Origin: Adineta vaga
Lineage: Eukaryota; Animalia; Rotifera
DNA length: 64,000 bases
Assembly: GCA_021613535.1 (NCBI GenBank)
Contig: CP075497.1
Span: 7,502,001-7,566,000, forward strand
Reading direction: 5' to 3'
The notes under the pieces were generated by a model. It saw nothing but the letters and a program-made list of their open reading frames with translations. It ran no database searches and was not told the DNA's origin. Made by a program: the position numbers and the translations under genes. Every line of letters begins with the position of its first letter. The first letter of the stretch is position 1. Positions 23,746-47,200 of the stretch are shown in pieces.

Positions 23746-24315
23746 ATGATTCGTCAAAATATATCATCTAGTTTAGAATCGATGCAAGAACTTCATCTCA
23801 AATATGGTTGGATACCAGGTGCTGAAAGTATTCGACCGGACGCTGAAATACGTGAAAAAAAAGAGAATTATATAAAAAATATGTTAACACGTTATGCTAG
23901 TCTTCAAGACTTTGTTTTACATAAATTTTTTGGATTGAAACCCGTTGTGGAAGGGAATTGGACGAATTCCAAATTACATGTTCCTATTGCGGAAATTACT
24001 GCTGCTCGAACTGCTGAAATAAAAGATTCAAATCGTCATCCATTTCGTTTAGTACCTAATCTCTTTTCTTATCGTGTTCCTGCAGGTACAAATCATTATG
24101 TTATTTGGTTTCTTTTAAATGGAGATGAAACTATTGATCCAATTACAAAGTCTCCATTGACTAACGATGAGATTACTTTAAGTATTGAAGAAGCATTACA
24201 ACAATTACTTGGCCCTACGAAAGATCAATTCTCGTTTGTTTGGTATCTCAATCCAAAACCAACTATTGTCTCAGATGTTTTATATCATGTACAAGTCTTT
24301 TGGATATCTGGTTGA
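23746..24315 (+). CDS. DUF3605/GIG1-like protein (HGT candidate)
   Basis: Motifs PNLFSYRVPAGTNHYVIW and WYLNP...YHVQVF resemble the fungal/protist DUF3605 pattern; intronless CDS. Confidence 0.6.
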   Translation: MIRQNISSSLESMQELHLKYGWIPGAESIRPDAEIREKKENYIKNMLTRYASLQDFVLHKFFGLKPVVEGNWTNSKLHVPIAEITAARTAEIKDSNRHPFRLVPNLFSYRVPAGTNHYVIWFLLNGDETIDPITKSPLTNDEITLSIEEALQQLLGPTKDQFSFVWYLNPKPTIVSDVLYHVQVFWISG

Positions 24316-24642
24316 TTAAGATCAGCATAAGAATGAACTATGACTTTTCTTTATTATGTATAAGTGTTCTATAATAAATCGTAATTCAATATATTTGATC
24401 TTTTTGAACTTCGTGATTTTGTATGAGTACAAAGCTCTCGACATATTTGAGACAGATATTCAACATGAATGTATAAAATAAAAATCCTTGAAGGACGTCA
24501 TTCAACCGTAACTTGCGCATGTACAGGCACAGAGTACACATTAATATAGCAAAGATATTGTATTTATTATATCATTTTTTGTTTTTCTTGACTGAATTAT
24601 CTCTGTACATTTGTCAACAACAAGTAATATTCCATCGTCATT

Positions 24643-25365
24643 ATGATAATCTATCTTCTTTCTGCTCCGGGTGATTTTGCTTCTGCACTCATGTATGCAT
24701 TCAATCAACGTTCAGATACATTGGTTATGGATGAACCTTTCTATGGCATATGGTTGAAAAATAATGGTAAAAAACAAGCATTTTATGATGAAGTTATGTT
24801 ACGAATGGAATGTGATGATGCAAATAAAATACATGATGAAATTGAAAATAGCGAAAAAATAAAAGGAAATATTTTTGTAAAAAATACAATGAATACCGTA
24901 CCACATATGAATGAACATCGTTTATTGAAGTATCATCCTATACTTCTTATTCATGATCCAGCTGAAACAATTGTATCCCATGGTATAATAGAACCAGCAT
25001 TAACTACTCGAGATCTGTTTCTAGAAGATCAAGTTAGAATGTATGATTGGTTGAAGGAAAAAATAAAAGAAGATCCCATTGTTATTAATAGCAATGAATT
25101 GAAGATAGATGGTGCAGCAATTCTACAAAAAGTGTGCAAAATACTAAATTTATCATATACAGATGAAATGTTATCGTGGCCATCGGGTCCAAAATCTATC
25201 GATGGTTTTTGGACTCAATTTTCAAACAATAAAGTTCATGCTTCAACTGGATTTCAGTCATTATCTTCAATACAAATTACGCGAGAAGACCTTCCAAAAA
25301 ACATGATTACAATTTACAATGCAGTATTACCTCATTATGAAAAACTTCTATCTCATTGTATCTAA
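24643..25365 (+). CDS. Sulfotransferase-like P-loop protein (BCAT-like N-terminal / Sulfotransfer_5 type; HGT candidate)
   Basis: ALMYAFNQRSDTLVMDEPFY, EMLSWPSGPKSIDGFW and VHASTGF match the bacterial/plant family; intronless. Confidence 0.75.
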   Translation: MIIYLLSAPGDFASALMYAFNQRSDTLVMDEPFYGIWLKNNGKKQAFYDEVMLRMECDDANKIHDEIENSEKIKGNIFVKNTMNTVPHMNEHRLLKYHPILLIHDPAETIVSHGIIEPALTTRDLFLEDQVRMYDWLKEKIKEDPIVINSNELKIDGAAILQKVCKILNLSYTDEMLSWPSGPKSIDGFWTQFSNNKVHASTGFQSLSSIQITREDLPKNMITIYNAVLPHYEKLLSHCI

Positions 25366-26149
25366 CTACACCATTGTGTTTAGTCTTACATAAAAGTTAA
25401 TTATTTACTTCATATAATATATGTATATATTTTTCATACTCGTGCAATAGAGTGGTTGAAGCAGTTGTCAGCAATTTAATCTGCATTAATTTCATATCTT
25501 AAGAAGACAATACGCAAATATGGTGGTGTTTTTGACCTTTACAATTTTATAAGATGCGAGCAAAGAATATTTTTCTCTGAATTCTTATCGTAAAAATATC
25601 TCGAACTAAATGTTGATACACTTGTTTTTTCATTGTTGGATGAAAAAAATGGCGTTCGTTTTTTTATCTTTCCTCTTTTTTCCAACATAGAATAAGACGT
25701 CATTGCACAAACGTATCACACTGATGGTAGATTTTTTCTTCCAACATCCTTTTTTCAGTCTGTGTATACATTTTCTAACACGTGTCTACATAGTTTGAAT
25801 AAATACTTGCTTTCAAATTTGTCACAGTTAGAAAATTTTCAAATACCAATAGAAAGGTAAAAAAATATGTCAGAATAGCAGACAATCATTTTGTGTTTTT
25901 TGAGGAATATAAATTGAGGCTTTTCATCGGCACATTACTAACCAATTTTGGTCGGTTGTGAATTTGGTTTTGATACTGTTTAAAAAGATGGCTTTTAGAT
26001 ATGACTTCTGTCATAGCTTGCCTTAGAGTCGTATTTATATAGTCTCGAATTTTGTACGTAGACAAATATCTATATGCTGTATACTGTCAACTTGAAATTT
26101 ATTCTATGATTGCTTAAGTATTTCTAGATTAAACTCAGATATCTGTTGT

Positions 26150-29100
26150 ATGTCTATTACATCGGGATATTTACCTACATGCAATCCAAATATTGTTCCT
26201 CATGTAGCTAACACATCATATCCATTCACACCACGCCGAGCAGCTGATACAACTGGTCGCTTTGGTTTACTTTATGATGCATCTTGTGATAAAATGCTTC
26301 ACAGTTCATATACAAATCTTCGCAAAATAACAGTACAATCATCACAGAAGCCACAATGCTATACAAAAACGTGCACAACAGATCAAACTCGTAATCTTTT
26401 AAAATGGTACAATATATATTCTGAATTAAGACTGAGTATTGCATTAGAAATGCTTCCAGCGGTCGGCGTAGGTGCATTGAATAACTATTCTTATCCAATC
26501 AATAAATACACTCGCTTTATCTGCTACAATTATATTAGTCACACAGAATATTTATCAAATGAAGACTTTCTTGTCAGAAATACAACAGCACCATCGTATC
26601 TGGATCCCCTCGCTACACATATTATTGTTCTAGTTAACTGGAGTATTACAGCAGTTGCCATCATACAATTACCACCTGAAGACGAGTTAGTTAAAGATAT
26701 CGATCTTGCTACGGATAAACTATGTTCAATCTTAAGTCATGATCAAGCACCTTCAAAACTTTCAGCTGATGAAGAATTTTATCTTAAAAAGATCATTTCA
26801 ACAAAAATATTTTCCAACATTGATCAACTTTCTGAAGTCAATTCAATCATTGATTTTTACAATACTATTCTTCGCTTTGAGAATAAGGTCAATATTCACA
26901 AACCCTATAACTATAATCTTTGTTATCTTGAACATTTTTTTGATCGCACAAGCGGGCTACAGTTCAGGTCCAAAGAGTTGATATCTACTTGCAGACGTGA
27001 ACTTGAATGTTATCTTATTCAGTTATCAATCGATTTCAAATCACTTAGAACAAAAATCAAACAAGACTATCCAAATATAGAAGGAACTCGGACGCATCAA
27101 CTGAATCATGTTTGCACTGTATGGTCCGATTTCGAGAAGCTATACAGACATAGAATCGAACAACTGCGAGACTTAGTGATCAAAGTACGGCAACGTAATG
27201 TCGAAGATGATCACATTCATCACGCATTAAATGACAATATAGGCTACGTACTACAGAAGCAAATAGAAGAACTAGGTTCCTGTTTAGGCAAGTTACGGGA
27301 GAAAGAAGCATTTATTGATGATTTGTTACAAAAACACATCGAATATCGAGATGCAGCCGATTACAACATAAGCAGCAAGGATGATCAAGAATCAGTTAGA
27401 CATAAACTGAACGTAGGTCTGAATCGTGAAACAATTATTTGTTCTACTGATCGACTCTACAAAGAGAAGTATTCTGAGTGGCGTAATCTGGCCTCACAAC
27501 TACTGAAAGAACGTGATCAGAACTCTCAATTGCAGCTCGTCTATGTTGATTTCACTGATTGTTCATATGCATTGTGTAATTTTCTTGTCTTTCCTTCCAT
27601 ACGAACGAACGACAATGCCAAGCAACCACTGTCGTTATCGACAACATCATCTTCAGCATCATCACAGCCAAGAATGACTACACCGTCATCAAATAAATCA
27701 CCATCGACACCCACAATATCATCTGACCAACCAAAGTCAACAACAACAACAACAACAGCAGATGAACCATCATCAAAGCCACAGCAAAGCGATGATCAGA
27801 TTAAAAATATTCTTCTCGTTGGCGAATCTGGAGTAGGAAAATCGACTTTCATCAATGCACTAGTCAACTATCTTCGCTTTGATTCACTCGAACAAGCTCG
27901 CAAGAAACCTATTGTTCTCATGCCTGTTTCATTTATCATGACAGTTGATGACAATTTTACCGAACAACACATCAAACTCGATGGAGAAGACAATGTTAGT
28001 AGTGAAGATTTTAGTGATTGTGGTCTATCTGTTACTCAACATTGCAAATCATACCTCATAACTCTTCCCACTGGACTAGGTTCAAAAAGAAAAGTACGCA
28101 TCATCGACACTCCTGGCATTGGAGATGTTCGTGGTCTAGCACAAGATGATGCTAACATGCAACATATTCTTTCATTTGTGAACAATCTAACGCATCTGAA
28201 TGCTATTTGCATTTTGATGAAACCAAATACCACTCGACTGAACGTATTCTTTCGTGAATGCTTTTTGCAGTTGTATGATTTTCTTGGCGATGATGCTCGT
28301 GAAAAGATCCTCTTCTGCTTCACAAATGCAAGGTCAACATTCTATACACCAGGAAATACAGCTCCTCTGCTGAAACAATTGCTACAATCATTACCAGGAA
28401 AACAAATACCTTTCACAAAACAGAATACATTTTGCTATGATAGCGAATCATTTCGCTATCTCGTCGCAGTAGAAAGTGGAATACAATTTGACAATGATCA
28501 GAAACAAGAGTACACAGAGAGCTGGAAGAGATCGTCCGGTGAGGCAGAACGTTTGCTCGATCATATTTGCAACCTCATGACAACACCCGTTAGTCCTGGT
28601 ACTATCAAATCAGTCAAACATGCTCATGTTGATATCAATCACATGATACGTCCTCTGTTGGAAACAATACGAAATACTCTTCGAAATATCATTTTACAAT
28701 CAGATCGATCTTGTAAAAATGCAATCGAACTATGTCCCAGATTGATTAAGATAAGCACTGCCATCTGTTCAAAATGTACACGGTCACTTCGTCCACTCGA
28801 TAACTTTTGGATCTTTGCTGATAATTTGCACGTCTCCTATAACAGATGTCGGACGTGTGATTGTGATGCAGATCATCACTTTCCGATCGATTATGAACTT
28901 GAATACAAGCTTTGTCAACAAGATGCTAACAACACTGAACGTGATATGCTAAGAACAGTAGATGAACTTTGTGAGACAAGTGCAGAATTTAGTTTCTTTC
29001 TTTTGAAAGATGTTGAATCGTCTCGTCAAGATCCATTTTTGTTAGGATTCAAGAGAATGATCAAGGAAGAGGCTGATATCTGCGCTGAAAAGGAAGAAAA

Positions 29101-29323
29101 TACTCTAAATACCAAGCTTCGAGATGCACTTGAAGAAATCAAAAAGAAGTATGAAGACAGAAAGCTGAAATTGAAGGCGGAGAATGCGGAACTATCTGTG
29201 GCTGACATATATAGTAAAATGGAGAATATAAACAGAAATAAAATGGTGGCGTCACAAATGGCTGCTATGCAACAATGGCAAAAATATATGATAAGACACT
29301 ATGAATACAGATTGACAGTTTGA
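26150..29323 (+). CDS. Stonustoxin/MACPF-like N-terminus + septin/AIG1-like GTPase + Cys/His-rich and coiled-coil C-terminus (copy 1, 1057 aa)
   Basis: G1 GESGVGKST, G2 region SVTQ, G3 IIDTPG, FCFTNAR; N-terminal GLLYDA..D and ATHIIVLVNW; intronless CDS. Confidence 0.8.
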   Translation: MSITSGYLPTCNPNIVPHVANTSYPFTPRRAADTTGRFGLLYDASCDKMLHSSYTNLRKITVQSSQKPQCYTKTCTTDQTRNLLKWYNIYSELRLSIALEMLPAVGVGALNNYSYPINKYTRFICYNYISHTEYLSNEDFLVRNTTAPSYLDPLATHIIVLVNWSITAVAIIQLPPEDELVKDIDLATDKLCSILSHDQAPSKLSADEEFYLKKIISTKIFSNIDQLSEVNSIIDFYNTILRFENKVNIHKPYNYNLCYLEHFFDRTSGLQFRSKELISTCRRELECYLIQLSIDFKSLRTKIKQDYPNIEGTRTHQLNHVCTVWSDFEKLYRHRIEQLRDLVIKVRQRNVEDDHIHHALNDNIGYVLQKQIEELGSCLGKLREKEAFIDDLLQKHIEYRDAADYNISSKDDQESVRHKLNVGLNRETIICSTDRLYKEKYSEWRNLASQLLKERDQNSQLQLVYVDFTDCSYALCNFLVFPSIRTNDNAKQPLSLSTTSSSASSQPRMTTPSSNKSPSTPTISSDQPKSTTTTTTADEPSSKPQQSDDQIKNILLVGESGVGKSTFINALVNYLRFDSLEQARKKPIVLMPVSFIMTVDDNFTEQHIKLDGEDNVSSEDFSDCGLSVTQHCKSYLITLPTGLGSKRKVRIIDTPGIGDVRGLAQDDANMQHILSFVNNLTHLNAICILMKPNTTRLNVFFRECFLQLYDFLGDDAREKILFCFTNARSTFYTPGNTAPLLKQLLQSLPGKQIPFTKQNTFCYDSESFRYLVAVESGIQFDNDQKQEYTESWKRSSGEAERLLDHICNLMTTPVSPGTIKSVKHAHVDINHMIRPLLETIRNTLRNIILQSDRSCKNAIELCPRLIKISTAICSKCTRSLRPLDNFWIFADNLHVSYNRCRTCDCDADHHFPIDYELEYKLCQQDANNTERDMLRTVDELCETSAEFSFFLLKDVESSRQDPFLLGFKRMIKEEADICAEKEENTLNTKLRDALEEIKKKYEDRKLKLKAENAELSVADIYSKMENINRNKMVASQMAAMQQWQKYMIRHYEYRLTV

Positions 29324-31892
29324 AAAAGAAAATATTACATATATAAATATACTTTACATTTTTTTCGATTCCGAATCGTTAAAATAAAATGCATTGTGAA
29401 GCATATGCGTTAGTAAATTTTTTTATAGAATTTCTGAAGAAAAACATTCTTTATCATTACTCCTTTTTTTATAGAAATACATCGTCGAAAAATTGTGTAC
29501 GTTTAGCAATTATCGTGTTTTGATTGTTTCTGCCACATTTGTGTGATGAATTAATGATTATAAGGAGCGAGTGCGACTGAATTTGCATTTCTAATATATT
29601 ATATCTAGTATGATGCAACGGTTCTTCGAAAACTCCAAGTTCTTGCGAAACCAGATCAAATAAGATGTATTGAAAACAAATCAATTATTTTAGGAAAAAT
29701 AAAATATGAGTACAGAAGAATAGTTCAATTTATTGCCTCTTCTTTATTTTATGACTTTTCATGGCATATGTTGACTTCATTGATGGACAAAATACGATTT
29801 AGTGGGTTTCTTGATATAGAAGGACAACTGAATATTTTTTGTCTTACTAGTCAAATGCATAGATTAATTATATTAGAAATGACAAGATTTCCGAAAGAAA
29901 AATATCTTCCTAACTATATACGTGAATATAAAAGAATGTTAACATAATTTATTATATAAACTACTATACAAAAGAACATCAAATTATACATACTAAACAT
30001 AAATAAGCACAGAATTGTTCTAGTGAAAATCCTTTTGATAATATTTTTGTTCATTTTAAAACTAAAGTGAAAAAGTATAGGCATCATTCAAAACTAAGTT
30101 TCTTATTCTTCAATACAATACTTCTAAGAGAAGAAAGTGTTCAACGATTTTTTCTGATAAAAGAATCAAATGCTCCTCGAAGTAATTTATAGTGAAGAAG
30201 AAAAGGAGTAGAGATTCTATGCAAATCATGTGAATAGAATTTTCTATCATTTACGAATGGGAAATATTGAATGATACATTAAAGTTTGTAGTTGATAAAG
30301 AGAAAAGTGGGGAATCTCTTTCAAGAAACTATCATTTCATCGAAAACAGAGTGCGGATGAAAAATTATACAACAACTATGAGAAAAATGTGGCAAACTAA
30401 TGTGAATCTTACGATAAACCTTTCGTGTTGTAGTTAAAAAGAGTGGGTTATTTCTTTTTTTTCTTGTCAAATACTTTGTATGAATAAACTTAGTGAACAT
30501 TTCTGATAATGCTTTTTACTGCTTTTTTTACAGTTTATCAATAATTTTTGTTGACAACTTGATTTATATCTGTTCTATTCACATTGTTACGAAAATCATT
30601 TCAGCATTAATGCATTATTAGATGAAATGTAAAATATTTCGACGATAGTCACAACAAATTCTTCGAACAGAATCAATGTTTTTCCACATGCACCGAGAAT
30701 TTGGTTTCAACTCTAGAAAAGATCATATAAATTCTCTAGTAGCTATACAACGGGAATACTTAGTAAATGCAAAATATATTTCGCAAATTTTCAGTGTCAT
30801 ATATAAGAATGAATATAAGATAGTTTTCGTCAAGTTTGTAAAACTGGGTGATAGTTTTTTTAATATAAATTTCATACGAATATGTACTGGTCCATGTGCA
30901 GTTCAGATAAGATGTGAATTTAGAGAGGCAAAAGCATTTATTTTTTAAAAAGAAAGTTACCGTTCGAGTGATTCGAACTTTAATATGTTTAGCGGTATTG
31001 TGTGTGCGAATGTAAGAAAGTCCTACATTTTATGTCGCTACATATGAATAATAACATCATAGGTTTGTAACATAGTAATAAATCATTGTAACTGATTGAA
31101 TCTCTTTCGGGAAAAATGCCAAGAGTAGATGAAAATTCATATCACGAAGTTTTTCTTAGAAATCTGAACTTTGCTGTTTATAATGCTGTTTTGAACATTA
31201 GTTCATTTTTTAATTAGTTGTACAATAATGATTACACTTTAGAAGATCGGTTCGTGTCTCTAGAATGTATTAATGATTATAATACTTTAGTTTGCTTCGC
31301 ATATATTTTATATACAACATATATCAGTGACCTCTATAAATGACTCAGATTTGAATTATTATTAACAAGATCCAACGATTATAATGTAAAAGTCTGAAAA
31401 TGTGTAATGATTGATTATTTCAGATTAATTACAAATACATCGAAATATGTTGCTTGATTACCTGCCGCACGAAATGCAAGATGATCTGCCTATATGTCAG
31501 CAACTTTTCAGAAGTCAAGGACACTTATCACTATTATTGAGCATTGAAAAGTAAAGAATTCGCTCTCATTTGTAAAAAAATTTTTAACCAATATCAAAGT
31601 ACTTAATCCACATTTCAAGAATTATTTATGATTTCATCATTTCATGTTGCGATAAACAGCACCTTTCAACTTTTAGGAGAATTTGTTTTGTTACTTTCTT
31701 CCGACATGTCTTTAAGATGCTTACGAAGACACGTCAACAATAGTAAATATGTTTTTCTTTCTGTAACCCTTTAAACAGCGTGCGGTTTAAACATTCTTAC
31801 AACGTGTCTCATATCACTAACCATTTTCAAGGGAATCGTACAGAGAAATTACTTGTTTAAGTATTTCTAGATTAAACTCAGATATCTGTTGT

Positions 31893-34800
31893 ATGTCTAT
31901 TACATCGGGATATTTACCTACATGCAATCCAGGTTTAACTCCCATAGTCGCTGAGAGATCCTCTCGGTTCACACCACGTCGAGCCATTGACACAACCGGT
32001 CTTCTTGGCTCACTTTACGATGCATCTTGTGATAAAATGCTTCACAGTTCATATCCAAATCTTCGCAAAACAACAGTACAATCATCACAGAAGCCACACT
32101 GCTATACAAAAACGTACACAACAGATCAAACTCGAAATCTTTTAGAATGCCACAATATACATCAAGAATTAAGACTGAGTATTGTATTAGAAATGCTTCC
32201 AGCGATCGGCGTGGGTGCATTGAAACGCTATTCTCATCCGATGGATAAATACACTCGCTTTATCTGCTACAAATATATTAGTCACACAGAATATTTATTG
32301 GATTATGACTTTGATAATAGAAACAAAACACCACCATCGTTACTGGATCCTCTCGCTACACATGTTATTGTCCTGGTTAATTGGGGCATTGATGCACTTG
32401 CTATTATTCAACTACCATCTGAAGACGAGTTAGTTAAACATATCGATCTGGCTACGGATAAACTCTGTTCCATTTTAAGTCATGATCAAGCATCTTCAAA
32501 ACTTTCCGCTGATGACCAGTTTTATCTTAAAAAGATCACTTCAACAAAAATATTTTCCAACATTGATCAACTTTCTAAAGTTAATTCAATCATTGATTTT
32601 TACAATACTATTCTTAGCATTAAAAATGATACCAGTATTCACCAACCCTATAACTATAATCTCTGTTCTCTTGAACATTTTTTTGATCGGCGAAGCGGGC
32701 TACAGTTCAGGTTCAAAGAGTTGATACCTACTTGCAGACGTGAACTTGAATGTTATCTTATTCAGTTATCAATCGATTTCAACTCACTTAGAACAAAAAT
32801 CAAACAAGACTATCCAAATGTAGAACGTACTCGAAAGCATCAATTGGATCATGTTCATACTCAATGGTCCGATTTGAAAGAGGTATACCAATATAGAATT
32901 AAACAACTGCGAGACTTAGTGATCAATGTACGGCGACGTAATGTCGAAGATGATCGCATTCTTCAGGCATTAAATGACAATATAGGCTACGTACTACAGA
33001 AGAAAATGCAAGATCTAGGTTCCTGTTTAGGCAAGTTACGGGAGAAAGAAACATTTATTGATGATTTGTTACAAAAACACATCGAATATCAAGATGCAAC
33101 CTATTACGAGATAAGCAGCAAGGATGATCAAGAATCAGTTAGACATAAACTTAACGTAGGTTTGAATTGTGAAACAATTATTTGTTCTACTGACCGACTC
33201 TACAAAGAGAAGTATTCTGAGTGGTGTAATCTGTCCTCACAACTACTGAAAGAACGTGATCAGAACTCTCAATTGCAGCTCGTCTATGTTGATTTCACTG
33301 ATTGTTCATATGCATTGTGTAATTTTCTTGTCTTTCCTTCCATACGAACGAACGACAATGCCAAGCAACCACTGTCGTTATCGACAACAGCATCTTCAGC
33401 ATCATCACAGCCAAGAATAACTATACCGTCATTAAAGCAATCACCATCGACACCCACAATATCATCTGACCAACCAAAGTCAACAACAACAACAGCAACA
33501 GATGAACCATCATCAAAGCCACAGCAAAGCGATGATCAGATTAAAAATATTCTTCTCGTTGGCGAATCTGGAGTAGGAAAATCGACTTTCATCAATGCAC
33601 TAGTCAACTATCTTCGCTTTGATTCACTCGAACAAGCTCGCAAGAAACCTATTGTTCTCATGCCTGTTTCATTTATCATGACAGTTGATGACAATTTTAC
33701 CGAACAACACATCAAATTCGAGGGAGAAGACAATGTTAGTAGTGAAGATTTTAGTGATTGTGGTCTATCTGTTACTCAACATTGCAAATCATACCTCATA
33801 ACTTTTCGCATGGGTCATCGTCGAAAAAAGAACTTTCGTATTATCGATACTCCCACTATAGGGCCAGATGATGCTAACATGCAACATATTCTATCATTTG
33901 TGAACAATCTAACGCATCTGAATGCAATTTGCATTCTGATGAAACCAAATACCACTCGACTGAACGTATTCTTTCGTGAATGCTTTTTGCAGTTGTATGA
34001 TTTTCTTGGCGATGATGCTCGTGAAAAGATCCTCTTCTGCTTCACAAATGCAAGGTCAACATTCTATACACCAGGAAATACAGCTCCTCTACTGAAACAA
34101 TTGCTACAATCATTACCAGGAAAACAAATACCTTTCACAAAACAGAATACATTTTGTTTCGAGAATATATCAATTCGCTATCTCGTCGCAGTAGAAAATG
34201 GAATAAAATTTGACAACGATCAAAAACAAATATGTAAAGATAGTTGGAAGAGATCATCCGGTGAGGCAGAACGTTTGCTCGATCATATTTGCAACCTCAT
34301 GACAACACCCGTTAGTCCTGGTACTATCAAATCAGTCAAACATGCTCATGTTGATATCAATCACATGATACGTCCTCTGTTGGAAACAATACGAAATACT
34401 CTTCGAAATATCATTTTACAATCAGATCGATCTTGTAAAAATGCAATCGAACTATGTCCCAGATTGATTAAGATAAGCACTGCCATCTGTTCAAAATGTG
34501 CACGATCACTTCGTCCACTCGATAACTTTTGGATCTTTGCTGATAGTTTACACGTCTCCTATAACAGATGTCGGACGTGTGATTGTGATGCAGATCATCA
34601 CTTTCCGATCGATTATGAACTTGAATACAAGCTTTGTCAACAAGATGCTAACAACACTGACCGTGATATGCTAAGAACAGTAGATGAACTTTGTGAGACA
34701 AGTGCAGCATTTAGTTTCTTTCTTTTGAAAGATATTGAATCGTCTCGTCAAGACCCATTTTTGTTAGGATTCAAGAGAATGATCAAGGAAGAGGCTGATA

Positions 34801-35045
34801 TCTGCGCTGAAAAGGAACAAAATAATCTCAATACCAAGCTTCGAGATGCACTTGAAGAAATCAAAAAGAAGTATGAAGACAGAAAGCTGAAATTGAAGGC
34901 GGAGAATGCGGAACTATCTGTGGCTGACATATATAGTAAAATGGAGAATATAAACAGAAATAAAATGGTGGCGTCACAAATGGCTGCTACGCAACAATGG
35001 CAAAAATATATGATAACATACTATGAATACAGATTGACAATTTGA
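31893..35045 (+). CDS. Tandem paralog of the stonustoxin-like/GTPase gene (copy 2, 1050 aa) with altered G3 (DTPT)
   Basis: Colinear with copy 1, and most of the C-terminal half is near-identical. G3 reads IIDTPTIGP with a 6-codon deletion. Confidence 0.8.
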   Translation: MSITSGYLPTCNPGLTPIVAERSSRFTPRRAIDTTGLLGSLYDASCDKMLHSSYPNLRKTTVQSSQKPHCYTKTYTTDQTRNLLECHNIHQELRLSIVLEMLPAIGVGALKRYSHPMDKYTRFICYKYISHTEYLLDYDFDNRNKTPPSLLDPLATHVIVLVNWGIDALAIIQLPSEDELVKHIDLATDKLCSILSHDQASSKLSADDQFYLKKITSTKIFSNIDQLSKVNSIIDFYNTILSIKNDTSIHQPYNYNLCSLEHFFDRRSGLQFRFKELIPTCRRELECYLIQLSIDFNSLRTKIKQDYPNVERTRKHQLDHVHTQWSDLKEVYQYRIKQLRDLVINVRRRNVEDDRILQALNDNIGYVLQKKMQDLGSCLGKLREKETFIDDLLQKHIEYQDATYYEISSKDDQESVRHKLNVGLNCETIICSTDRLYKEKYSEWCNLSSQLLKERDQNSQLQLVYVDFTDCSYALCNFLVFPSIRTNDNAKQPLSLSTTASSASSQPRITIPSLKQSPSTPTISSDQPKSTTTTATDEPSSKPQQSDDQIKNILLVGESGVGKSTFINALVNYLRFDSLEQARKKPIVLMPVSFIMTVDDNFTEQHIKFEGEDNVSSEDFSDCGLSVTQHCKSYLITFRMGHRRKKNFRIIDTPTIGPDDANMQHILSFVNNLTHLNAICILMKPNTTRLNVFFRECFLQLYDFLGDDAREKILFCFTNARSTFYTPGNTAPLLKQLLQSLPGKQIPFTKQNTFCFENISIRYLVAVENGIKFDNDQKQICKDSWKRSSGEAERLLDHICNLMTTPVSPGTIKSVKHAHVDINHMIRPLLETIRNTLRNIILQSDRSCKNAIELCPRLIKISTAICSKCARSLRPLDNFWIFADSLHVSYNRCRTCDCDADHHFPIDYELEYKLCQQDANNTDRDMLRTVDELCETSAAFSFFLLKDIESSRQDPFLLGFKRMIKEEADICAEKEQNNLNTKLRDALEEIKKKYEDRKLKLKAENAELSVADIYSKMENINRNKMVASQMAATQQWQKYMITYYEYRLTI

Positions 35046-35237: not shown

Positions 35238-38200
35238 TTATTCATTAACTTCAAGAATACCAGCAATAGATCGTGTTGTCCAAAATCCTTCTGTTTCTGA
35301 ACATGGTATTGTAATGGTACTAACCAAATGTTTTGCTGCTTCATTTGCACTTACTGCTCGTAGAGCTGTTAGATACACAGGACATTCATAAACATTCGTC
35401 GCATCCACTGTTTCTACGTTTTTCTAAACAAAAAACGAAATCTCAGTATTAACGAGAAATACTTCCAGTCTGTTTATCTTACTGGTATAAGTTTACAAAG
35501 GAGAGGTGGTAAACGATGACTTCGTTGTTGATCAGTACAATCAACAATCTGATGACTTTTATTATCCCATTGTGCTCCATCTAAATAGATTCCATCAATA
35601 GTAATACCATTGGAAATATCATGTGCTACCTATAATTATTTAATGTATCGTATTATTCAGAAAACTAAGAATTTCTATAACCTACAGTGGATGACTGTAA
35701 TGCTTGACGTTCTTCTTCATCGTCTAATACTTTATAGTCAAATTTCAATTGATCAATTGGTAATGCAAAGTATCGCGCTGAACTTTGAAGTATCGCAGAG
35801 AAAAGTCCTAAAAATAGCAGCGATAATGAATGATTCTAAGATGGATATACTAGTGACAAACCTTTTGGATAATAGAATGCAGCTGTATTAAACATGGTTG
35901 GCAATGGTGACAAGGCTTTTTCATCTTCGACATAAGTAATCACTAATTGAGTCCAATTCTTGAAGAATGTTATTCGTCCAAGAAGATCCGTAATCCATGC
36001 ACGAAGTGATTTTGTTGATGGATACGATTTTTTCTAAAATATTCATTTTCTTAGAAACTATCTGCTAGTTTTATTGTACAATGATACATGCATGCTGGTT
36101 TATCAAAAAAGGAAAAGTGTAGAAGAATAAGAAGTGAATGGAAATTGGAGAGAATATTTTTTTTTCTTGTTTCTTTATCAGAAGACAAAACAAAAATATC
36201 TTACACGATTTTCATGAATTAACTCCTGTTTAGTATATTAGTATTATCTAATGTAATGTTAGATCAATTATATACATACTTTCCAAACCGATGGTACTTC
36301 ATTCATTAATAAAGTACGTTGAGTCTCTTCCAAAACTTCACTAACCACTGTTTCACCAACTAGAGCTCGACGAAGATCGTCACATATTAAATATATCAAT
36401 TCAAGCAATTCATTATATGCTCGAATTTCTTGTTTAAGTAATGCAAAGTAAACAGAATAAGCTCGATATTTATTTCCTAAATGAAATATATGATCGTAGA
36501 TTAAATATTTATTGGCGAAATCTTTTACCTAATTTTATAGCAATCTTTGTTAATGCTGTTTCAAATGTAATATGACGTGCTGCTGGACCAAAACCAGTTT
36601 CAATAGACCGTGGTACTTTCGATGTAATATCTTCAATTATAACCGTGCAGGCTGCATCACTATCTGTCAATGTACTACAAATGAAAATATTCAAAACAAT
36701 TTCTATAAGCAAATAGATATTCATACCCAAATGACATCATCATACGATATTGTGGTTCCGTTGTTACTAACATATCTACTAATTCATTTGCTTGAACATA
36801 CATCAATGCTCGATTTGTATTTGGATGCATACCAAATACGCGTGGATCATCAAAATCAGGCAATGCATTGATATAAGACAATAGACCCGAAAAATTCAAA
36901 TCCAATCGTGGTGCTCTGTACGTCTAAATATGTATAAAGATGATTGATTACGAAAAAAACGAATCATGAAGAATGTTTTACATCATCCCCTGCATACGAA
37001 TAATCTTCTTTCAAAGTTTCAGGACAATAGAATCGTTCAATAATTCGTAACAATCTTCGTCGATCAAATTCATCTGTAACTCGACCACCATAAATGATTG
37101 AACCAGCAAGATAACAAAAGACATCAAATGGTGGTATTTGATCTTTAGAACGACGTACAAGACTTTCCAGTTCTAGTACGGCGACTTCCAAATCAGATTG
37201 ATTGAATTCATAACTTAAATTCCATCCTAACGCACCAAATTTTTTACGTTCATGTATAACAGCATGAAAAAATGCTAGATTAAATACTAAACGACGCCAA
37301 TAGGGTCCTATGTATTGATTAAAAAGATAATCTTCACAAAACAGTTAGTAGAAGAACAACTTTACCTAATGTATTTTTTTCGTAGACTTTTTCATTGACA
37401 ATACCAGTAGGTGCAAAAGTTTGAAGTAAACTACTCTTTAAACCTCTTGGCCATTCAACACTCATCTAAATATATGATGGAAAACATTCTTTTTGAGAAT
37501 ACAGTAATCAACAATACAAACTTTAAGACCAAGTTGTAATAATTCCAAAGGAAAATTTTTATCCGGTTTTGAAGATAAAAACAATCGAAATTGACTATCA
37601 AGTTCAAGGCCAGGTTTATTGAAACTAAACCAGTAGAAATATTAGATAAAAGTATGAATGAAACTACCGAAATATTATTACTTATTAACAAGTACACGAA
37701 GTCGTGGCATAAACGATGCACTGAGATGGCAATTATGTAAAAATATCCAACGACCTTTTAATGTTAAAGCTTTCGATAGAACTTCTTCTACTTTTGGTCC
37801 TTGACCTTGACCTAATGAAATTACATCTAGATGTGCTGCTGTTCCACGTGTTTCTCTTGCAAAACGAATAAGAAGACTAGTTGGATCGGTACCTACAACG
37901 TAATGAAAACATTTCCCTCAACTATTCACAAAACAAACGAAAAATATACCAGGAGAAAGTAAAAGAATGATTGGTGCTTGTGGTGATGAATGTGTATATA
38001 TATCTTGTATATTTGCAAAACCTGATGATAAAAAGTTGCTACCCATCTGATCTGCAACATACTGTGAAATTGATGGCAATAATGTATCAGGCCGAAGAAT
38101 TTTTATAGTTAGTAAACAGCAGAAACGAGTTAAATCACTATATTTTTCATGTCGAGTCAAATAACTATATGGATTTGAATGTTTGAAAAACTCTTGATCC

Positions 38201-41200
38201 GTATCGAGTAATAAATTTCGACAGATAGGATATAAAGATGGTAATTGTTCATTAACAAATGAAATTTTTTCTTCAGTAATATTGGTTAAAAGTGGACTCA
38301 TAAAACAAGTCCATTCATCTTGTGTAATATAGGATACATTTGTTTCTGGTTCTACTGTTGTTTCAACTTGTTCTTCATGAATAGTTTCTGTTGTTATCAT
38401 TCGAGATCGATTAGTTTTTTCATCAGCTGCTTCACGTTCAATTGTTGTTGTTAATAAAAATGAAAATAATAATTGATGCTCAGCAAATAAACTCCATGAA
38501 ACAAGTTGATAAAGCGTATAAGTTAAACGATCAACCATTGTACGAAGTGTTGCTGCTCGTTGTTGCGGACTAATCAATTGTGAATATTGTTTAGTATTAC
38601 GTCTTAGTCTTTGTATAACTGGTGGTGGACCGAAGTCATGTGTTGAATCTTCACTAAGACTCAAGCTAGGTGATCGCATAGGATTACTAAATATTGAACT
38701 TCGTCGCCTTTGTTGTCGCATTAAACGTTGAGCTGTTTCTAAATCCGGTGCTAAATTTGTCATACTCATACGACGTGTTGTATTTCGATCTAATATACAT
38801 GAATGAAATGTACGTTGAAACCAAGTTAAAGAAAATTGATACATCACATTTAAACGTGATAAATGATTAATAAGAAAATAGAGTAATGAACCACGTTTAG
38901 CTAAGGAAACATAACATTGGCGTGCTATATTTATCTGTCGTTCATTCGCTTCATTATCACGAACACGATTGGCAATTTCATCACTAGTAATTTTCGAACG
39001 AGTAAGAATATCGATAAGATCCTGACGATCAAGTAAATGTTGTTCCGATGATGTTAACATTTCTAATGTTTGATCTTCATATTCACGAAGACTTTTTAAA
39101 TCTTGTGCCATCGTTTCTAAGATATGTTTTCGATCATGTTCTAAATGTGGTTCTTCGTTTAAAACAACAACACTCAATAGTTGATGTTCTAAACCATTCG
39201 GTGTAATTGTAAAATTAACTAAAATATAAAGAAAGAAGAATTTCGAAAGATTGTTAAAGATTCGTTTTTCTTTTTACTTAAGGTAACACGAATACAGATG
39301 TCAGGAAGAAAATGTGGATTATTTAATTGTGTAATGAAATAGACACGAAAATTTGAATTCAATTCAATATCAACATCATTAAAACGTATGGTTCCTGTTG
39401 ATGAAAGTTTTCGATCGAATAGATCACGATTGAGTAATGGTAATAAAGAAGATTCAATCGTTTCACCAACATTTTCAATAATTAATGGTAAACCAAGTCG
39501 AATACATTGTTCACAAACACGTAATAAACTTGTATCATCCGAAGAAACAATACGAAGATTATTCTCTGTTTCTTTTGTTCGAATCCTATGAATAACAAAA
39601 GATAATAACAAATCAATCGATCTATCTAAAACGTACCATTGAACTGCTTGACGTTGTGGATCGATTAATAATGGCCATTTGATACAATGTTTAACAAGAA
39701 CTGCATTTTCACTATACGAAAAGAAACGATGAAAATGAAAAGATTGAATATTACAAATCAACTTACATCGAGCATTCGTCATCTGGTAATAATTGACTAA
39801 TCCAATTTCTTATTTCACTTGTGGCTGATAAAATCGTTGCTAATGTATAATTGGCTGTAAAATTAATTTGATTATCTGTTAGAACTTTTTGAAAATCTCG
39901 TAAAATTTCTTGTCGAAATTCACTATTAAATGGTCCAAAATAATTTACTGCACCAGCTGATAATAATGCATCTCCAATGAGTAAACGTACTTGTTCTTCA
40001 AGTTGAGTAACTTGTTCTTGCCAACGAACTTTTTCAATTGCTAGAACATTCGTCAACTCATGTGCACATGACATACGTTGTTTCATTAATTCACGTCGAG
40101 AATATAAAGCTTGTTTTTCATTAACACTATTTCGATATTTATCTTCTAATTCTTGAAGATGATCTTTAACAAGTTTAAGCATTTCTTGTTTTCGTGATAA
40201 ACTTTTCTGCATGACAGCTAAAGCTTCATTGGCTGTTTTCACTTTCTCTTCTTTTGGTTTAACTGTTCGATATACTTCATAATATCGTTGAATAGCAAGA
40301 ACCCATTTACAAAATGATCGACATGCTGATGAGACTTTACCAATTACATCCGGTGTAAATTCTGGATTACGTGAATATTGTAAAAGTTTTCGATATGTTC
40401 GATCTGATATATTATTTATATCAAGATTCGTTAAACGACTGATAAAACCAGAATCTCCAAGTACTTGTCGAGCTGTTGCCCAATCTGATTTACATTCTAA
40501 TAGAACACAAACAGCACACATGACCATCATAACTTGATAGGGTGGACTTTGATAGACTCGAACTTCAGCTACATCAGCTTTATCCAGTTGCGAAACATCA
40601 GCCATCGCTTCTTCTAGAACAGGTTTAACACTTAACAGATCAAGTTCAGCAATTCCAGCATAACGTTCAACCATATCTGTATCTTGACGAACTTTTTGTT
40701 CTTCAACTTCAACAATTTCTTTGACTTCAATAACACCTGTTTGATCTTTTTGTAATTGATTTAATAATTGTTCAATTTCCTAGAATCGAGAGACCAAAAT
40801 TTTTAATTTTTAAATATTATCTCTTCTTGACACTAACTTTTTCCTTCGCATCAATTTGTGGTCCAAGTAAAGCTAATTCGTCACGCATGACACTAACACT
40901 TGCATTAGCATCGGATAATTTCGCTAGACCTGTTGATAATCGATTATAATTTGTCTACGAAACAAAGACATGAAGTAAAATAAAAAAATAAACAAATTTC
41001 AATCATACTAGAAAATCTTGCTTTGTTCGTGTCATCATTCGATCAAATGCTTTCATTAGATCCATATACGATGAAGGTGTTAGATAATAATGTCGTTTAT
41101 ATGCAGCAAAGAATCGTTTTGCCGCTTCAACAACAATCTTATGCATTGAAACACAACAAAGTGCTATGCGATGATGAAGTGCTTTTTCATCGAGTATACC

Positions 41201-44200
41201 ATGATCCGAAGATAAGATTCTAAAATGTAATTTGTTTTTCAGTTGTATAAGTTTATTTGTTTTTGAATATTTTACTTTAAATCGACTGCTTCAAGAAAAA
41301 CATCAGCTACTTGTACCATTGACATTTCACTCCATTCTGTAAACCAATCGATACTTGTACAATTGAGTAAAGCAGGATGTAAACGACAGATTTCACGAAA
41401 TTTATTACCCGCTGGAGAAAATGAAAGAATTACATGTAAATTAGTTCGAACACGCTAGAATTATCAAGAAAAATCGAATGATTATACACGTTTAAAGATT
41501 ATTTCGATTTACTTGATAGAAGAATTCACGAAGTTGACCAGGTGTATCACTCATATTAGCTGCATAAGCATCATTTTTAAGATCCATCGTCAATGCATTG
41601 AATTCATCTGGTTCAAATAAATCAACTACTGTACCAGAATTTAGAATACTTTCGATATCTTCAATGAAACTATCCTAAATAAGAGAATAATGGAAATAAT
41701 AGATTGAAAAATTAGACGAAAAGAAAGAGCAAAATAGGAGCAGTTTAACATATATATATATATGTATGGGTATAGCTTATTATTACCTCTTCTTAACTAA
41801 AAAAGTGACAAAAATGATAAAAAAAATTGTTCAAGAAAGATGAGAGAACTTTACTTACGGATAATATATCTTTTTCTTGTATAAATAAAGCCATTGGACG
41901 GTTTTGAACTGTGACAGCTTTGAATACCTAAAATGAATGTATATTGTGAATTCTCTGGATAATTTCTCTCGTAAACATGGTTTGAGTAATACTTACAATT
42001 TTTAAATCATCACGAAATTCTTGATATCCATAACCACGTTTAATATTCAATTGAAACATCGAATGTCCACAAATCAATGCACTCAATTCTAAACATGTTT
42101 TTCGACCCGTTCCATCAAGACCAATCAATAAGAGATGTCCTCCTGGTTGTTGTATAACTCGACATATTCGTAAAACATGTTCGACAGCTTCTTTGAAAAA
42201 GACCATTTTCAGCGTTGATTGTCCACTTAATGATTGTTTCATTTGATAATCCAAAAATACTGGACAACATTGACGCCAATCATTCAATTGTTGATATAAA
42301 TGATCATCAGATTTTAAGAAATTACAAAATAATAAAGGATTTTTTGAATAATTTGAAACATCTAATGAAACTTTGAAATAACTATTCGTTGTAGCATTTA
42401 AATGTTTATAAAATATTGCTAGATCACTTTCGGTGACTAATCGATCGGCAAAAACACGTAAACATTCATGAGCAAATAGAATTGCTAAACATTCTTGATT
42501 CGTTGTTGTTAAAGTTGATGCTTGCATCAAACCTTGAGCAAGTTTAGCTAAATCTCGAAGATTAAATATATAGTGTACTTTCGATGGTGTTGGAAGAATA
42601 TTGATTAATACTCGATAATACATGACAAGACAAGCAGAAACAAGAAGATACAGTGATGAACGAACATCAGCAGAAAAATCTAAACTATTCAGAAATCGAC
42701 CAAGGCGAACACTGTATATATGAAAGAGTTGTTTCGCAGCTGGATCAGGTAAAGCAAATATTGAAAACGAATGAAGTAAACGTTTTGATGGTGCACATCG
42801 ACCTGATGATGGTGAATCACAAGCAGCGAGAAATGTTAAATCAGACAATGGACGCATTTGATTTTTCTTTGCATCAAGAGCTGATCCTAAAAATAAGAAG
42901 AAGTATATGATCCATAAACACGTTTTCTTCTCTATTCAGTCAGTACCTGTTTGAAGAGTATATCGTAATGTTTCAAGTGTTGGTTGATCACCAAATTGAT
43001 CAACTTGTGGAATATTTAAATCATCGATAAAGACTAATAACCATTTACCTTGTTGGCAACCAAGTAAATTTCCTTTCTTCTTCACTAAATTGCTTATAAT
43101 TTGATTGACAAGTTTGTTTGGAGTAGTTTGAGCACTCATTTGAATTTTTAATGATTGCAAAGCTAAGGAGTAGAAAGAAAAACAAAGATATACAATGTTA
43201 TCTTGTAAATAGATTTCAAAACGGAAAAACTTCTCTATGTAAACCATGTTAGTACCAATATCAAATCATCATTAGTTATAATATCCTTTCAAATTTTTGG
43301 GAATTCGTATTATATATATATATATATCAATCAAATATTAATACGAATGAAAGGATCGAATCTTAGTTTCAAGACTTACTTTTCAATTTCGAACGATGAG
43401 GAGCATTTCCTGATCAATGTAAATTATCAAAAGGAAAAAACTCGTTTTTTTTCATCTCTACTTACCATCACCTTTCGTTGTTTCGGGAGAAACATCTGTT
43501 GCTTGTGCTAGTTTACTTGTAGCAATACCTCTTGCTGCATTATATTCTAGAACATCACCTAAAATTGTACCTGGTCGAATAAAATTTCCATCGGGTAATG
43601 TTAAAGATCGAAGCATAGCTTCAATCAATAAACTTTTTCCAACACCACTATTTCCAGTTAAAAGAACCGGGACTTTATGGATAAGAATTGAAGTGATTAA
43701 GAATGAAAATCGAACAATATCAACTGTTGGTATCACTACTGACATTTGTTCACTTTTGATCAATTGTTCCGTTTTCGGAACAAGTGACTCCCATTCATGA
43801 TAGATAAATGTATTTAAATCGATCATATAATCAAATATCATACGTGCTTCAGGTGGTAAATAAACGGAATAATTGATATTTGCACCGAATAAATCACTAG
43901 ATTAGTGGATTTATAATTAGAGAGATTTTAAGAAACAAAAAGAAACTTACCGAACAAAAGTATCAAATTCTTGAGTTGTTTGATCATGTTCAACTTTAAT
44001 TTGTTCTTTTTGATTGATAAGATTATCATCTTCAAAATTATCTTCACGCTAAATGTACACATATATACATGAATAGTTTGTATAAAATGTAAACGCGAAG
44101 CAATTATTCATACTTTTAATCCGCCACCAAAACTCCAAACATAGCAAAAGACATAGATACGTATTAAACATTGACGAATATTTTTCGGATTTTTTTGTAA

Positions 44201-47200
44201 ATAATATTGTTTCTTATCATTGATGATATATATAACTAATTCATCACTAGAAAAAGATAAATAAATGAAATAGTTGGACTAGTTTGATCTGTATGATCAT
44301 ACCCTTGAGCGTGTTGTTTCAGACCGTACGGTTTTGGTGGCTCGTCTAAAATAGATTTAGAAAATAGTAAGTAGAAGAAATAGACGATGTAGGTGTGCAT
44401 GTGATTGCTATTCATTTTTCTTCTAAAAAAAACAGAAGCAGGGAGGTAAGGGTATCAAACCTTCGCTTCTCTCCTTGAGAAAAGGATTTTTTGTCATTTC
44501 TTCAATAGAAATTCAAATCAAAATACATTTCCTCTACTTATTAGTCTACAAAAATTCCTACTCGCTGCTGCTGCTGTTATATTTCGTTGATCTTCTTCTC
44601 CAAATCCTCCATTTTTATCCATATAATTCAAAAATGTTGATAATAAATAACAAAGAGTTTGTAAAATATTTAGTTTTGACACTGGCATATGCCATGGATC
44701 TTTGAGTTGACTGAGAAAAGCAAATCCTAGAAATATTCTTTTCTTCGATGAAACAGGTACAGAAACTAAAAATCAATGAACCTTTATCGATCGAAAATTC
44801 CATTAATTCTCGAAGAAATTCAATTGCAGCTGGTGGAAATTCTGCCGGTAATTTACATCGATACCAATAATTTAAAAAAGGCATATAACCAAGATCCGTT
44901 GGATCAAAATAAACCATTGCACAACGGCTAACCGTAGCTGGAGATGAATTGACTAATGAATCAACTTCAAATAAAATTCGTGTATGTCCAGATAGACCAA
45001 TACGTTCACCATTTGCCAAACAAAGAATTTTCGAATCATCAAGAAGCTATCAATGATTTAAGAATGATCATTGATCAATCTTTACGAAATATCAATAACT
45101 TACAGTATTCAAATTTTCAACCCATAGTGTATCGATAGGACCATCAAGAACTAACCATTGCCAATGATCAATATAATTTTGTTCAGTCTATTATGAATAA
45201 AGTGAGTTGTTATAGAACTACATTGAAAACTACATACCTTTTCCGTATTCATTTGAGATTCTTGACTTTTAGCATACGCTCGCATAGTAGTCGCAAGCTA
45301 AACACAAAGTTCATCAGTTTTATATTCGAAAAAAAGACAAACGATATTTCTTACCATTCCATCAGTAAATTCTAATGTATCTGGATTAACTGCTCCATAT
45401 AATTCAGATATTTGCATTGCTTTTGGATTTAAAACGGTGACATCAACAGTAGCCAATCGATTTTGTCGAGTCTTTATCATCAAAACTACTCTTCAACTAT
45501 TGAACTATTCTATTTTACTCACCTGTGTTGCATCTTTTGTCATCGTTGGTAAATAAGTTAATGCTTTTTGAAGAATATTTCGGGCTGCTGTTTTTCCACC
45601 TCCTGCACCGCCAACTAACATAGTACCATGTCGAAGAACAATTTGATTGTAAAGTTGCAAAGCTTTATCAGCTTGTGCTGGCCAATATTCATAATTTAAA
45701 TCTTTAATCGCATGTTTAATAGCTTGTTGAATTATTTCATGTTCATTTAAATCTTTTCCAGCTTGTGGAAAAAGATCACGAAGAATATCAAGAAAAAGTG
45801 CTGCATCTTCCTTAAGTAATTTCGGAAGATTTGATTCAACTAATGCTTGTAACATAATATTTTCCTACATTGAAGAAGAAGAAGAAGAAGAAGAAATGTG
45901 TGAGATTTTGTTTTTGATTAAATAAATGAATTATTCATACTTCAGATTGTTCATCGGTTAGATTTGGATCTTTTGTATGTGATCGTTTGATTTCACCAGC
46001 AGTTAAAAGGACAGCTTTAATTGCTCGCATACCAAAATCATAATGATCTTGTTGAGATAATTGACTATTGGATAAATTATATAGATAAACAATTTTCGTT
46101 GCTAAAATCTTCGCCGAAGTAAAACCAACAGAGAAAAGAATGACTAAAAGATTTCGGATGAAGGAAGTGCTTGCGAAATATTCATTAGATTACCTTCACC
46201 AATCAAAGAAAAATATGGAATCATCATAGCAATCGGTCGAAACATAGGTTTAAGATTATCAGGTAATTCAACACGACCAGAATACGTCGGATTCCTAGAA
46301 GAAAAGAACTAAAAGATCGTTCGCTTGTCTTTCAATTACTTACATAGTCACAAAAAATCCACAAGATGAATTCATTTTTATTTCACGACCATCAAATGCA
46401 AACCTTCAAGAATAGAATTTGTTGATTTCATTTGTTTTTTTTAGAACTACGTAAACTTACCGTAGAGCATGTGAATCTTTTGCTGTTTTAATAGTTAATA
46501 ATTGTTGTGCAACGACAGATAAGACTTCAACATCAATACGATTAAATCTAAACAACAAATATGAAATTTATTGGCGAAAAAAAGTAGAGAAATCGAATTT
46601 ACTCATCAAAACAACACCACGATCCTAAATACAGAAAAGACAAGTGAAATGAAATTTAATCATCAAATCATACCTGATTGAGCTAAACCACTGAACATTT
46701 TACCGAGAGTCTAGAAATATCATTATGTTGTTTTTTGAAAAGTACCAATGTAAAATTGAATATTTTTTTACCTTATGATCCAGTTCATCAGAACAATTGA
46801 ATACTAAACAAAGTTTTCCAAATGATTTGGATAAATCTTTCACTGTTTCTGTCTTTCCCGTTCCAGCAGGTCCTAAAATACATCAAACATGTTCAATACA
46901 GAACCATACGAGGATCTTATATCATACCCGATGGTGCACCACCAAGATTCAGTTTGATCGCACCAGTCAATGTTAAATAACATCTTTGAAAAGAAAAAGA
47001 AAAGAATTTCTACACGAAACAAAATAAAAATAAAAATTCATACCGATCAGTCAATGGTGTCACGACTAAGCGACTTGAACATCCAAGATATTCATATCCA
47101 TATGTAAAAGTAGCATCACCTTGTAGAATTTGAAACGTTGTCTCTGTATCATTCCATTCATATCGAAGATGTTTTTGCCATTCAAAATCATTTCTATCTC

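Follow-up and report, generated by a model that had tools for sequence, protein, structure and literature searches.

A tandem pair of stonustoxin-like GTPase genes in Adineta vaga, with a putative pseudo-GTPase copy that diverges at its switch motifs despite gene conversion

The tandem gene pair and its support in independent data

We analyzed a window of 64,000 nucleotides from the bdelloid rotifer Adineta vaga (GCA_021613535.1, contig CP075497.1, positions 7,502,001 to 7,566,000; all coordinates below count from the first letter of the window). It contains two paralogous genes in head-to-tail orientation, hereafter copy 1 and copy 2, which encode a stonustoxin-like N-terminal half fused to a GTPase (G) domain and a helical stalk (Table 1). 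The two proteins are identical at 918 of 1057 positions (87%), and no third member of the family was found in the window. The differences include the loss, in copy 2, of residues at the GTP switch, and it is the nature of this loss that we address here.

The earlier note on this DNA, made from the letters alone, had called both paralogs intronless. This is true of the coding regions, which are unbroken, but not necessarily of the transcripts: a splice-acceptor-like AG lies in the 40 nt upstream of the ATG in both copies, so that an upstream exon or leader is possible. The two 5' blocks that carry it are 97.5% identical, and the sequence outside them is unalignable. Contigs labelled as RNA, from two runs of one study, start exactly at 26126. 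The arrangement suggests that the coding exon is joined to upstream sequence, either by cis-splicing or by trans-splicing of a leader; trans-splicing occurs in rotifers.

Copy 2 is present in independent DNA data. Seven runs from four studies contain 0.70–0.83 of the sampled copy-2 words, against an expected share of 0.35 if copy 1 alone were present. In one DNA run, contigs are identical (0 differences) to copy-2-specific stretches, and a 2649-nt contig at depth 19 spans the spacer between the copies, with a depth of about 40 on tracts common to both. Copy-2 words, zero-difference contigs and spacer-bridging contigs thus show that the duplication is real, and an assembly artefact is rejected in view of the words in independent DNA, the single-depth spacer and the approximately doubled depth on shared tracts. 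Read support for the exact remodelled patch of copy 2 (DTPT in place of DTPG, see below) is indirect, as a contig of the same run terminates at 33803, one base 5' of the patch, and none among the matches listed for this run crosses the deletion. The runs also show extra versions at 28909-29020, 32972-33030, 33717-33722 and 34546-34857, in which letters typical of copy 1 and copy 2 occur together with letters found in neither. These versions probably represent alleles that have undergone conversion along tracts of their own.

Copy 1 is covered end to end (26126-29327) by two presumed-RNA runs of one study, including a 1360-nt contig that crosses G1–G5 with 0 differences; a third presumed-RNA run covers the 3' end only. 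The same two runs give no cover on the copy-2-specific stretches 31899-32540 and 33504-34466, a blank from which we draw no conclusion on whether copy 2 is expressed, because contigs lose rare variants.

Table 1. Features of the gene pair, in nucleotide positions of the window or amino acid (aa) positions of copy 1.
Feature	Position	Strand	Remarks
Shared 5' block, copy 1	26110-26149	+	40 nt; acceptor-like AG at 26126-26127; duplicated unit begins here
Copy 1	26150-29323	+	1057 aa; uninterrupted open reading frame (ORF)
Ser165, copy 1	26642-26644	+	replaces Gly of the TH-x7-G MACPF motif
G1/P-loop, copy 1	27821-27847	+	GESGVGKST
G3/switch II, copy 1	28106-28135	+	DTPGIGDVRG, intact; agrees with family consensus
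Arg696, copy 1	28235-28237	+	in KPNxxRL; candidate trans arginine finger
Shared 5' block, copy 2	31853-31892	+	acceptor-like AG
Copy 2	31893-35045	+	1050 aa; uninterrupted ORF; architecture and predicted fold as copy 1; putative pseudo-GTPase
Gly165, copy 2	32385-32387	+	MACPF motif glycine kept
G1/P-loop, copy 2	33561-33587	+	same as copy 1
Divergence patch 1, copy 2	33804-33866	+	G3 Gly to Thr; D-x-R-G segment (6 codons) deleted; Gln to Pro
Arg689, copy 2	33957-33959	+	candidate trans arginine finger kept
Divergence patch 2, copy 2	34157-34256	+	G5 region D to E, E to I, F to I, and next helix; no indel
SNTX-type MACPF domain, copy 1	aa ~26-260		profile and fold searches
Helical FAT-like domain, copy 1	aa 279-394
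Thioredoxin-like domain, copy 1	aa 397-481
Ser/Thr linker, copy 1	aa 487-547		disordered
GTPase domain, copy 1	aa 551-809
Helical stalk, copy 1	aa 822-1055		with Cys/His cluster

Domain architecture and fold

The N-terminal half of the proteins, about 480 residues, is stonustoxin-like, and searches by profile and by fold bear out the earlier proposal to this effect. A profile of 50 relatives searched against the PDB ranks the beta and alpha subunits of stonustoxin (4WVM) first, with E-values of 2e-14 and 4e-13 over profile positions 19-388. AlphaFold models of the copies are confident (pLDDT score 86.3 for copy 1 and 86.6 for copy 2), 4WVM occupies Foldseek ranks 1–2 (E-value 1e-10), and VIA-align superposes model residues 26-486 on stonustoxin with a Z-score of 15.3 and a root-mean-square deviation of 5.2 over 369 aligned residues. 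Stonustoxin was detected solely by the family profile and by fold, and not by single-sequence searches. The Pfam family MACPF_SNTX (PF24674) matches neither copy at E-values up to 1 and gives weak matches in 14 of 50 relatives (best E-value 9e-4). The motifs LGSLYDA and ATHVIVLVNWG, on which the proposal had been built, are those of copy 2; copy 1 reads FGLLYDA and ATHIIVLVNWS.

The domain order is also that of stonustoxin, in which MACPF, FAT-like and thioredoxin-like domains precede a PRY-SPRY domain (PMC10566576). Neither copy has PRY-SPRY at its C-terminus, where the GTPase and the stalk stand instead. The G domain of copy 1 matches the Pfam families AIG1 and MMR_HSR1 above cut-off, and its G1–G5 motifs agree with the family consensus. 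In VIA-align comparisons, Toc34, Toc33 and GIMAP7 come out on top (Z-scores 14.5-16.2), and septin folds are found as well. The stalk hairpin bears seven conserved Cys/His residues, which may bind zinc.

Residues lost and kept in the GTPase domain of copy 2

The G1 and G3 motifs of both copies and the loss of six codons from copy 2 were re-found in the sequence as first described. The G3 of copy 2 reads DTPTIG-P, with an 18-nt deletion at about 33863/33864, and in the G5 region CYDSESFRY of copy 1 corresponds to CFENISIRY in copy 2. We defined as near-invariant the columns conserved in at least 90% of the other 95 rows of a family alignment (A2; n = 90). Copy 2 breaks eight of them, five in patch 1 and three in patch 2, and none elsewhere: G656T, the deleted D659, R661 and G662, Q665P, D764E, E766I and F768I (copy 1 numbering). 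Copy 2 retains G1 and G4, along with the threonine of G2 and the aspartate of G3. Such losses are infrequent in the family: among the 321 G domains of 350 representatives, the G3 glycine is present in 308 and missing in 13, and the G3-to-beta4 spacing is shortened in four. In septins, the gamma-phosphate is bound by this glycine, and the G interface is built in part from switch II (PMC8640212). With the G fold kept and the G3 glycine, D-x-R-G segment and G5 residues gone, copy 2 bears the marks of a predicted pseudo-GTPase, in line with the earlier note.

A residue of potential importance is kept by both copies. The arginine at position 696 of copy 1 (689 of copy 2) is conserved without exception in 21 diverse G domains (alignment A4), is Arg in 73% of A2, and, judged by sequence register with one septin type, lines up with the septin loop that follows beta4. 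A trans arginine finger occupies this loop in algal septins and Toc34 (PMC8640212; 10.1101/2024.03.25.586683; 10.64898/2026.03.28.715002), and we infer that Arg696/Arg689 is a candidate for the same role. Arg661 was rejected as the main arginine finger, since it varies across the wider family where Arg696 stays constant. The Toc34/GIMAP/septin class is described as depending on G-interface dimers and a trans arginine for activity and as including pairs of active and inactive paralogs. A precedent for cooperation within such a pair is GIMAP7, which boosts hydrolysis by GIMAP2 (PMC8201404).

Gene conversion and maintained divergence

Copies 1 and 2 are sisters in the phylogenetic tree and adjoin intact proteins of Adineta ricciae. 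The non-coding sequences on either side cannot be aligned (z 1.3 and 0.2), and the coding regions share identical runs of up to 243 nt, versus a permutation maximum of 164. Differences at fourfold sites are clumped (Sawyer-type test on 363 sites, matched by 1 of 5000 shuffles). Unalignable flanks combined with long identical coding tracts point to an old duplicate under gene conversion.

Against this homogenised background the two patches stand out. Synonymous divergence (pS) reaches 0.68 in patch 1, whose flanks have 0 and 0.06, and 0.44 in patch 2; the G-domain and C-terminal tracts around the patches have values of 0, 0.06 and 0.02. Between codons 431 and 1057, 11 of the 21 synonymous-only differences fall within 32 of 560 eligible codons, the patches having been picked post hoc, and a window scan without such a choice is matched by 17 of 5000 permutations. 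Peaks of synonymous divergence in converted duplicates have been described as a signature of selected differences (PMC3924837). The patches, being synonymous peaks inside homogenised tracts, thus look as one would expect of differences that selection has maintained, and the near-saturated pS of patch 1 implies that the open frame persisted for long. The motif-targeted losses and the pS peaks look like a selected pattern, as opposed to neutral evolution of copy 2, and its divergence at the switch motifs is likely held by selection against conversion.

Homogenisation is weaker in the N-terminal half (pS 0.20), where divergence rises locally to 0.35 and 0.48 around the two MACPF motifs, the latter value at codons 151-175. 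Within codons 1-430, the copies differ at 88 positions, and derived residues number 29 in copy 2 versus 44 in copy 1, which places copy 2 nearer to the family.

Relatives and other pseudo-GTPases

Among relatives with a species name, those of Adineta ricciae and Rotaria come closest (45-50% identity). phmmer retrieves 2632 representatives at E-values up to 0.001, many of them matched mainly via the G domain, and proteins with both MACPF_SNTX and G domains are found in echinoderms, fungi, rotifers and chordates. The fusion is therefore not new in itself, and the idea that it is a novelty of this locus is refuted by its wide occurrence in eukaryote databases.

The nearest A. ricciae relatives and an apparent tandem pair of Rotaria socialis have an intact G3, and the G3 motifs listed from 25 metagenome loci are all DTPG (22/22). 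Tandem arrays are common, as in four of the 25 metagenome loci and in consecutive R. socialis accessions, and are mostly intact. At four metagenome loci (L002, L004, L006 and L008), there are at least two family members or fragments each, some of them head to head, and all listed G3 motifs are intact. Two other paralogs labelled as A. vaga have ordinary G3 and G5 motifs, and the DTPT patch was found in no second protein of the set compared. Given the intact G3 in nearest relatives and arrays, the pair appears to be lineage-specific and not a conserved module. The survey, which drew on single proteins and metagenome loci rather than whole rotifer genomes, speaks against conservation of the sensor/executor pair proposed in the earlier note: both GTPases are intact in the closest relatives and in the other tandem arrays.

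Degenerate G3 motifs do occur elsewhere in the family. Proteins P0070 and P0224 of R. socialis and R. magnacalcarata are G3-degenerate, with a similar switch II deletion common to the two species. Their origin is separate from that of copy 2, with which they group in 0% of 200 bootstrap trees (19 rows). Both proteins also carry a further deletion, located between G4 and G5, and have glutamine at the candidate arginine-finger position. In another eukaryote, G3-degenerate P0309 and P0434 are found beside intact paralogs. It thus appears that pseudo-GTPases arose independently and repeatedly in the family. P0402, P0409 and P0420, one of which is from Rotaria, have DTPS for DTPG and are fused to an ADP-ribosyltransferase domain (PF01129); they may constitute a further pseudo-GTPase subfamily.

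These data bear on whether copy 2 is simply a silent or fading duplicate, in which neutral changes in the G domain blocked conversion locally and conversion keeps the rest healthy-looking. Indels and clustered mismatches are reported to interrupt conversion (PMC3924837), and both the absence of DTPT from the other proteins compared and the lack of conserved pseudo-GTPase pairing in relatives would fit a chance decay. However, there are two separate patches, one of them free of indels, and they fall exactly on G3/switch II and G5; the other 82 near-invariant columns are intact, including all seven in the weakly converted N-terminal half. The long-lived open frame implied by patch 1 and the independent loss, followed by retention, of the same segment in two Rotaria species also argue against decay. 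We consider this explanation unlikely, if still worth serious attention.

The MACPF motif and the pore question

Copy 1 has a loss of its own. It breaks two of the 90 near-invariant columns, F763Y and G165S. Glycine occupies position 165 in 95 of 95 other A2 rows, in 26 of 26 control proteins from other eukaryotes and in six of six fish SNTX-like proteins, and Ser165 of copy 1 is unique in the family sample. In the profile alignment, the position corresponds to a glycine of stonustoxin, which we take to be the glycine of the MACPF signature. Highly conserved glycines of MACPF and cholesterol-dependent cytolysin (CDC) proteins are described as a hinge of the central sheet (10.1101/2022.10.12.511876), and substitution of a glycine pair, probably at another position, locks a CDC in the prepore state (PMC7527733). 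Read from the sequences, the losses in the two copies are reciprocal, the copy 1 side consisting of one residue.

The earlier note had inferred pore formation, and the transmembrane hairpins (TMH1 and TMH2) do not support it. Hairpins were scored as beta-alternating at z > 1.5; the motif expression used to locate them caught 49 of 97 bdelloid-type proteins and 26 of 31 controls, "bdelloid-type" being a label by similarity, with many such relatives being metagenome proteins. TMH2 alternates in none of the 49 bdelloid-type proteins, both copies included, versus 21 of 26 SNTX-GTPase proteins of other eukaryotes and all six fish SNTX-like proteins. The column profile over all 97 rows agrees, with a helical rather than beta periodicity. 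TMH1 alternates, with a median z of 1.56 versus 1.89 and 1.82 in the controls. Without alternation in TMH2, a classic two-hairpin barrel is doubtful throughout the bdelloid branch. This would weaken the claim of a pore-former, not that of pore-former-like oligomerization. P0309, P0434, P0310 and P0320 are degenerate at G3 or switch II and belong to a eukaryote with canonical-looking MACPF hairpins, which makes them a better place to seek a gated-pore pair.

The same results bear on whether the copies form an obligate heterodimeric, GTP-gated pore in which copy 1 is the GTPase and copy 2 the MACPF hinge, in the manner of stonustoxin or of paired NLRs. Such a pore would suit the stonustoxin fold over residues 26-486, the heterodimeric action of stonustoxin (PMC10566576), the reciprocal motif losses with raised pS at codons 151-175, and the alternating pattern kept in TMH1. 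It is at odds with the TMH2 result, which includes copy 2, with a reciprocal signal that amounts to a single residue in copy 1, and with the fact that relatives do without such a pair; we regard it as very unlikely.

Proposed mechanism

Our preferred reading, to which we give a probability of roughly 45%, is that copy 2 is a selected pseudo-GTPase, likely catalytically dead, which co-assembles with copy 1 and alters its cycle. Copy 1 would be a GTPase activated by dimerization. With its P-loop, G2 threonine and G4 in place, copy 2 would remain able to bind nucleotide phosphates but could neither switch nor hydrolyse in its own site, and its Arg689 might work on copy 1 in trans. In mixed dimers or oligomers, the GTP cycle of copy 1 and its assembly on membranes would then be altered, with the MACPF half serving oligomerization or membrane contact and not a classic two-hairpin beta-barrel pore.

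Several observations weigh against this reading. The intact G3 motifs of the nearest relatives and of the metagenome loci, and the absence of a second DTPT carrier among the proteins compared, do so from the comparative side. The 18-nt deletion could itself impede nearby conversion and give patch 1 without selection, and the overall ratio of nonsynonymous to synonymous divergence (pN/pS) of 0.62 indicates only moderate constraint. The arginine-finger assignment is based on register with a single septin type. Finally, switch II is part of the septin G interface, so its loss in copy 2 could abolish, not tune, pairing of the G domains.

The last point leads to another possibility, namely that copy 2 works without copy 1, as a nucleotide-independent scaffold, decoy or constitutively set form in another tissue or under another stress. 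If the missing switch II blocks pairing, this would follow naturally, and the unrelated upstream regions mean that regulation can differ; the differences in the N-terminal 430 residues are enough for a new specificity. Yet the candidate trans arginine is still present in copy 2, and the stalks of the two copies are nearly identical, as would suit co-assembly, although conversion alone could suffice to preserve both features. Independent action of copy 2 seems to us distinctly unlikely.

Analogy with immune GTPases and with the SNTX-like genes of fish is all that makes a role of the pair in cell-autonomous defence likely; stonustoxin-like genes of fish have been discussed as immune genes (PMC12107551). 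The terms stonustoxin, MACPF and AIG1 were absent from the 12 of 16 supplement files searched of a study of fungal infection in rotifers (PMC11258130). Going further, one may imagine a reciprocal split of labour, with copy 1 as the GTP engine and copy 2 providing the hinge and a donated arginine finger, both sets of differences being selected against conversion. Together they would form a machine of two components in the innate defence of rotifers, one that attacks or remodels membranes on a GTP timer and uses a single hairpin or no barrel. This is speculation that we think improbable.

Comparison with known systems

Stonustoxin (SNTX alpha/beta, 4WVM) is the best profile and fold match and shares the LG.LYD and TH-x7-G motifs. 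The copies differ from it in sequence (11% identity), in the C-terminal half, in the TMH2 pattern of the bdelloid branch and in the motif glycine missing from copy 1. Closer in architecture are eukaryotic proteins with MACPF_SNTX, DUF7656, G and DUF8206 domains, found in echinoderms, fungi, a nematode and fish (there with FN3), which have the same fusion and G motifs, are often arrayed and now and then include G3-degenerate paralogs. Most of those measured retain two alternating hairpins, unlike the bdelloid branch. No functional study of SNTX-GTPase fusion proteins was found in the literature searched.

The closest G folds are those of paraseptins (Toc34/Toc33, GIMAP2/GIMAP7, algal and ciliate septins), which have a DTPG-x-GD G3 and the arginine after beta4. 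In this class, interacting active and inactive paralogs and motif loss after duplication have been described. The septin case differs in that the duplicate loses its arginine finger, whereas in copy 2 the arginine position is preserved and it is switch II and G5 that have gone; furthermore, none of these paraseptins is fused to a MACPF domain. Control of an active immune paralog by a neighbour whose nucleotide site has degenerated is a feature of paired NLRs and of regulatory IRG proteins. NLRs belong to another fold class, and their pairs are arranged head to head, in contrast to the head-to-tail copies 1 and 2. The analogy with paired NLRs drawn earlier is thus looser than that with GIMAP2/GIMAP7 and duplicated septins.

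No paper on a MACPF-GTPase fusion or on a bdelloid MACPF protein was found in a search of listings and the beginnings of abstracts, with most subscription literature outside its reach. The architecture is already annotated and pseudo-GTPase paralogs are known in the class; the new element is the motif-targeted, reciprocal divergence held against conversion. The pair represents a natural experiment, in which proteins of high identity maintain differences at three places: the GTP switch, the loop of the guanine site and the MACPF glycine. It flags which residues matter and makes control of a MACPF domain by GTP turnover testable. The locus is also a clear candidate, from a bdelloid, for peaks of divergence that selection upholds while gene conversion acts around them.

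Neighbouring genes in the window

Directly 5' of copy 1 (23746-25365, + strand) lie a DUF3605-like ORF and a sulfotransferase gene (PF19798), both uninterrupted, which are possible horizontal acquisitions. Further upstream of the pair, there are an SSB gene (9825-10418) and F-box-like ORFs (1712-3394). An ORF of 987 aa at 13083-16046 (+ strand) contains many TPR repeats; its N-terminal region falls outside the TPR match and presumably resembles bdelloid ADP-ribosyltransferase-TPR proteins. On the other side of the pair, exons of a dynein heavy chain gene occupy approximately 35300-51000 on the minus strand, convergent with copy 2.

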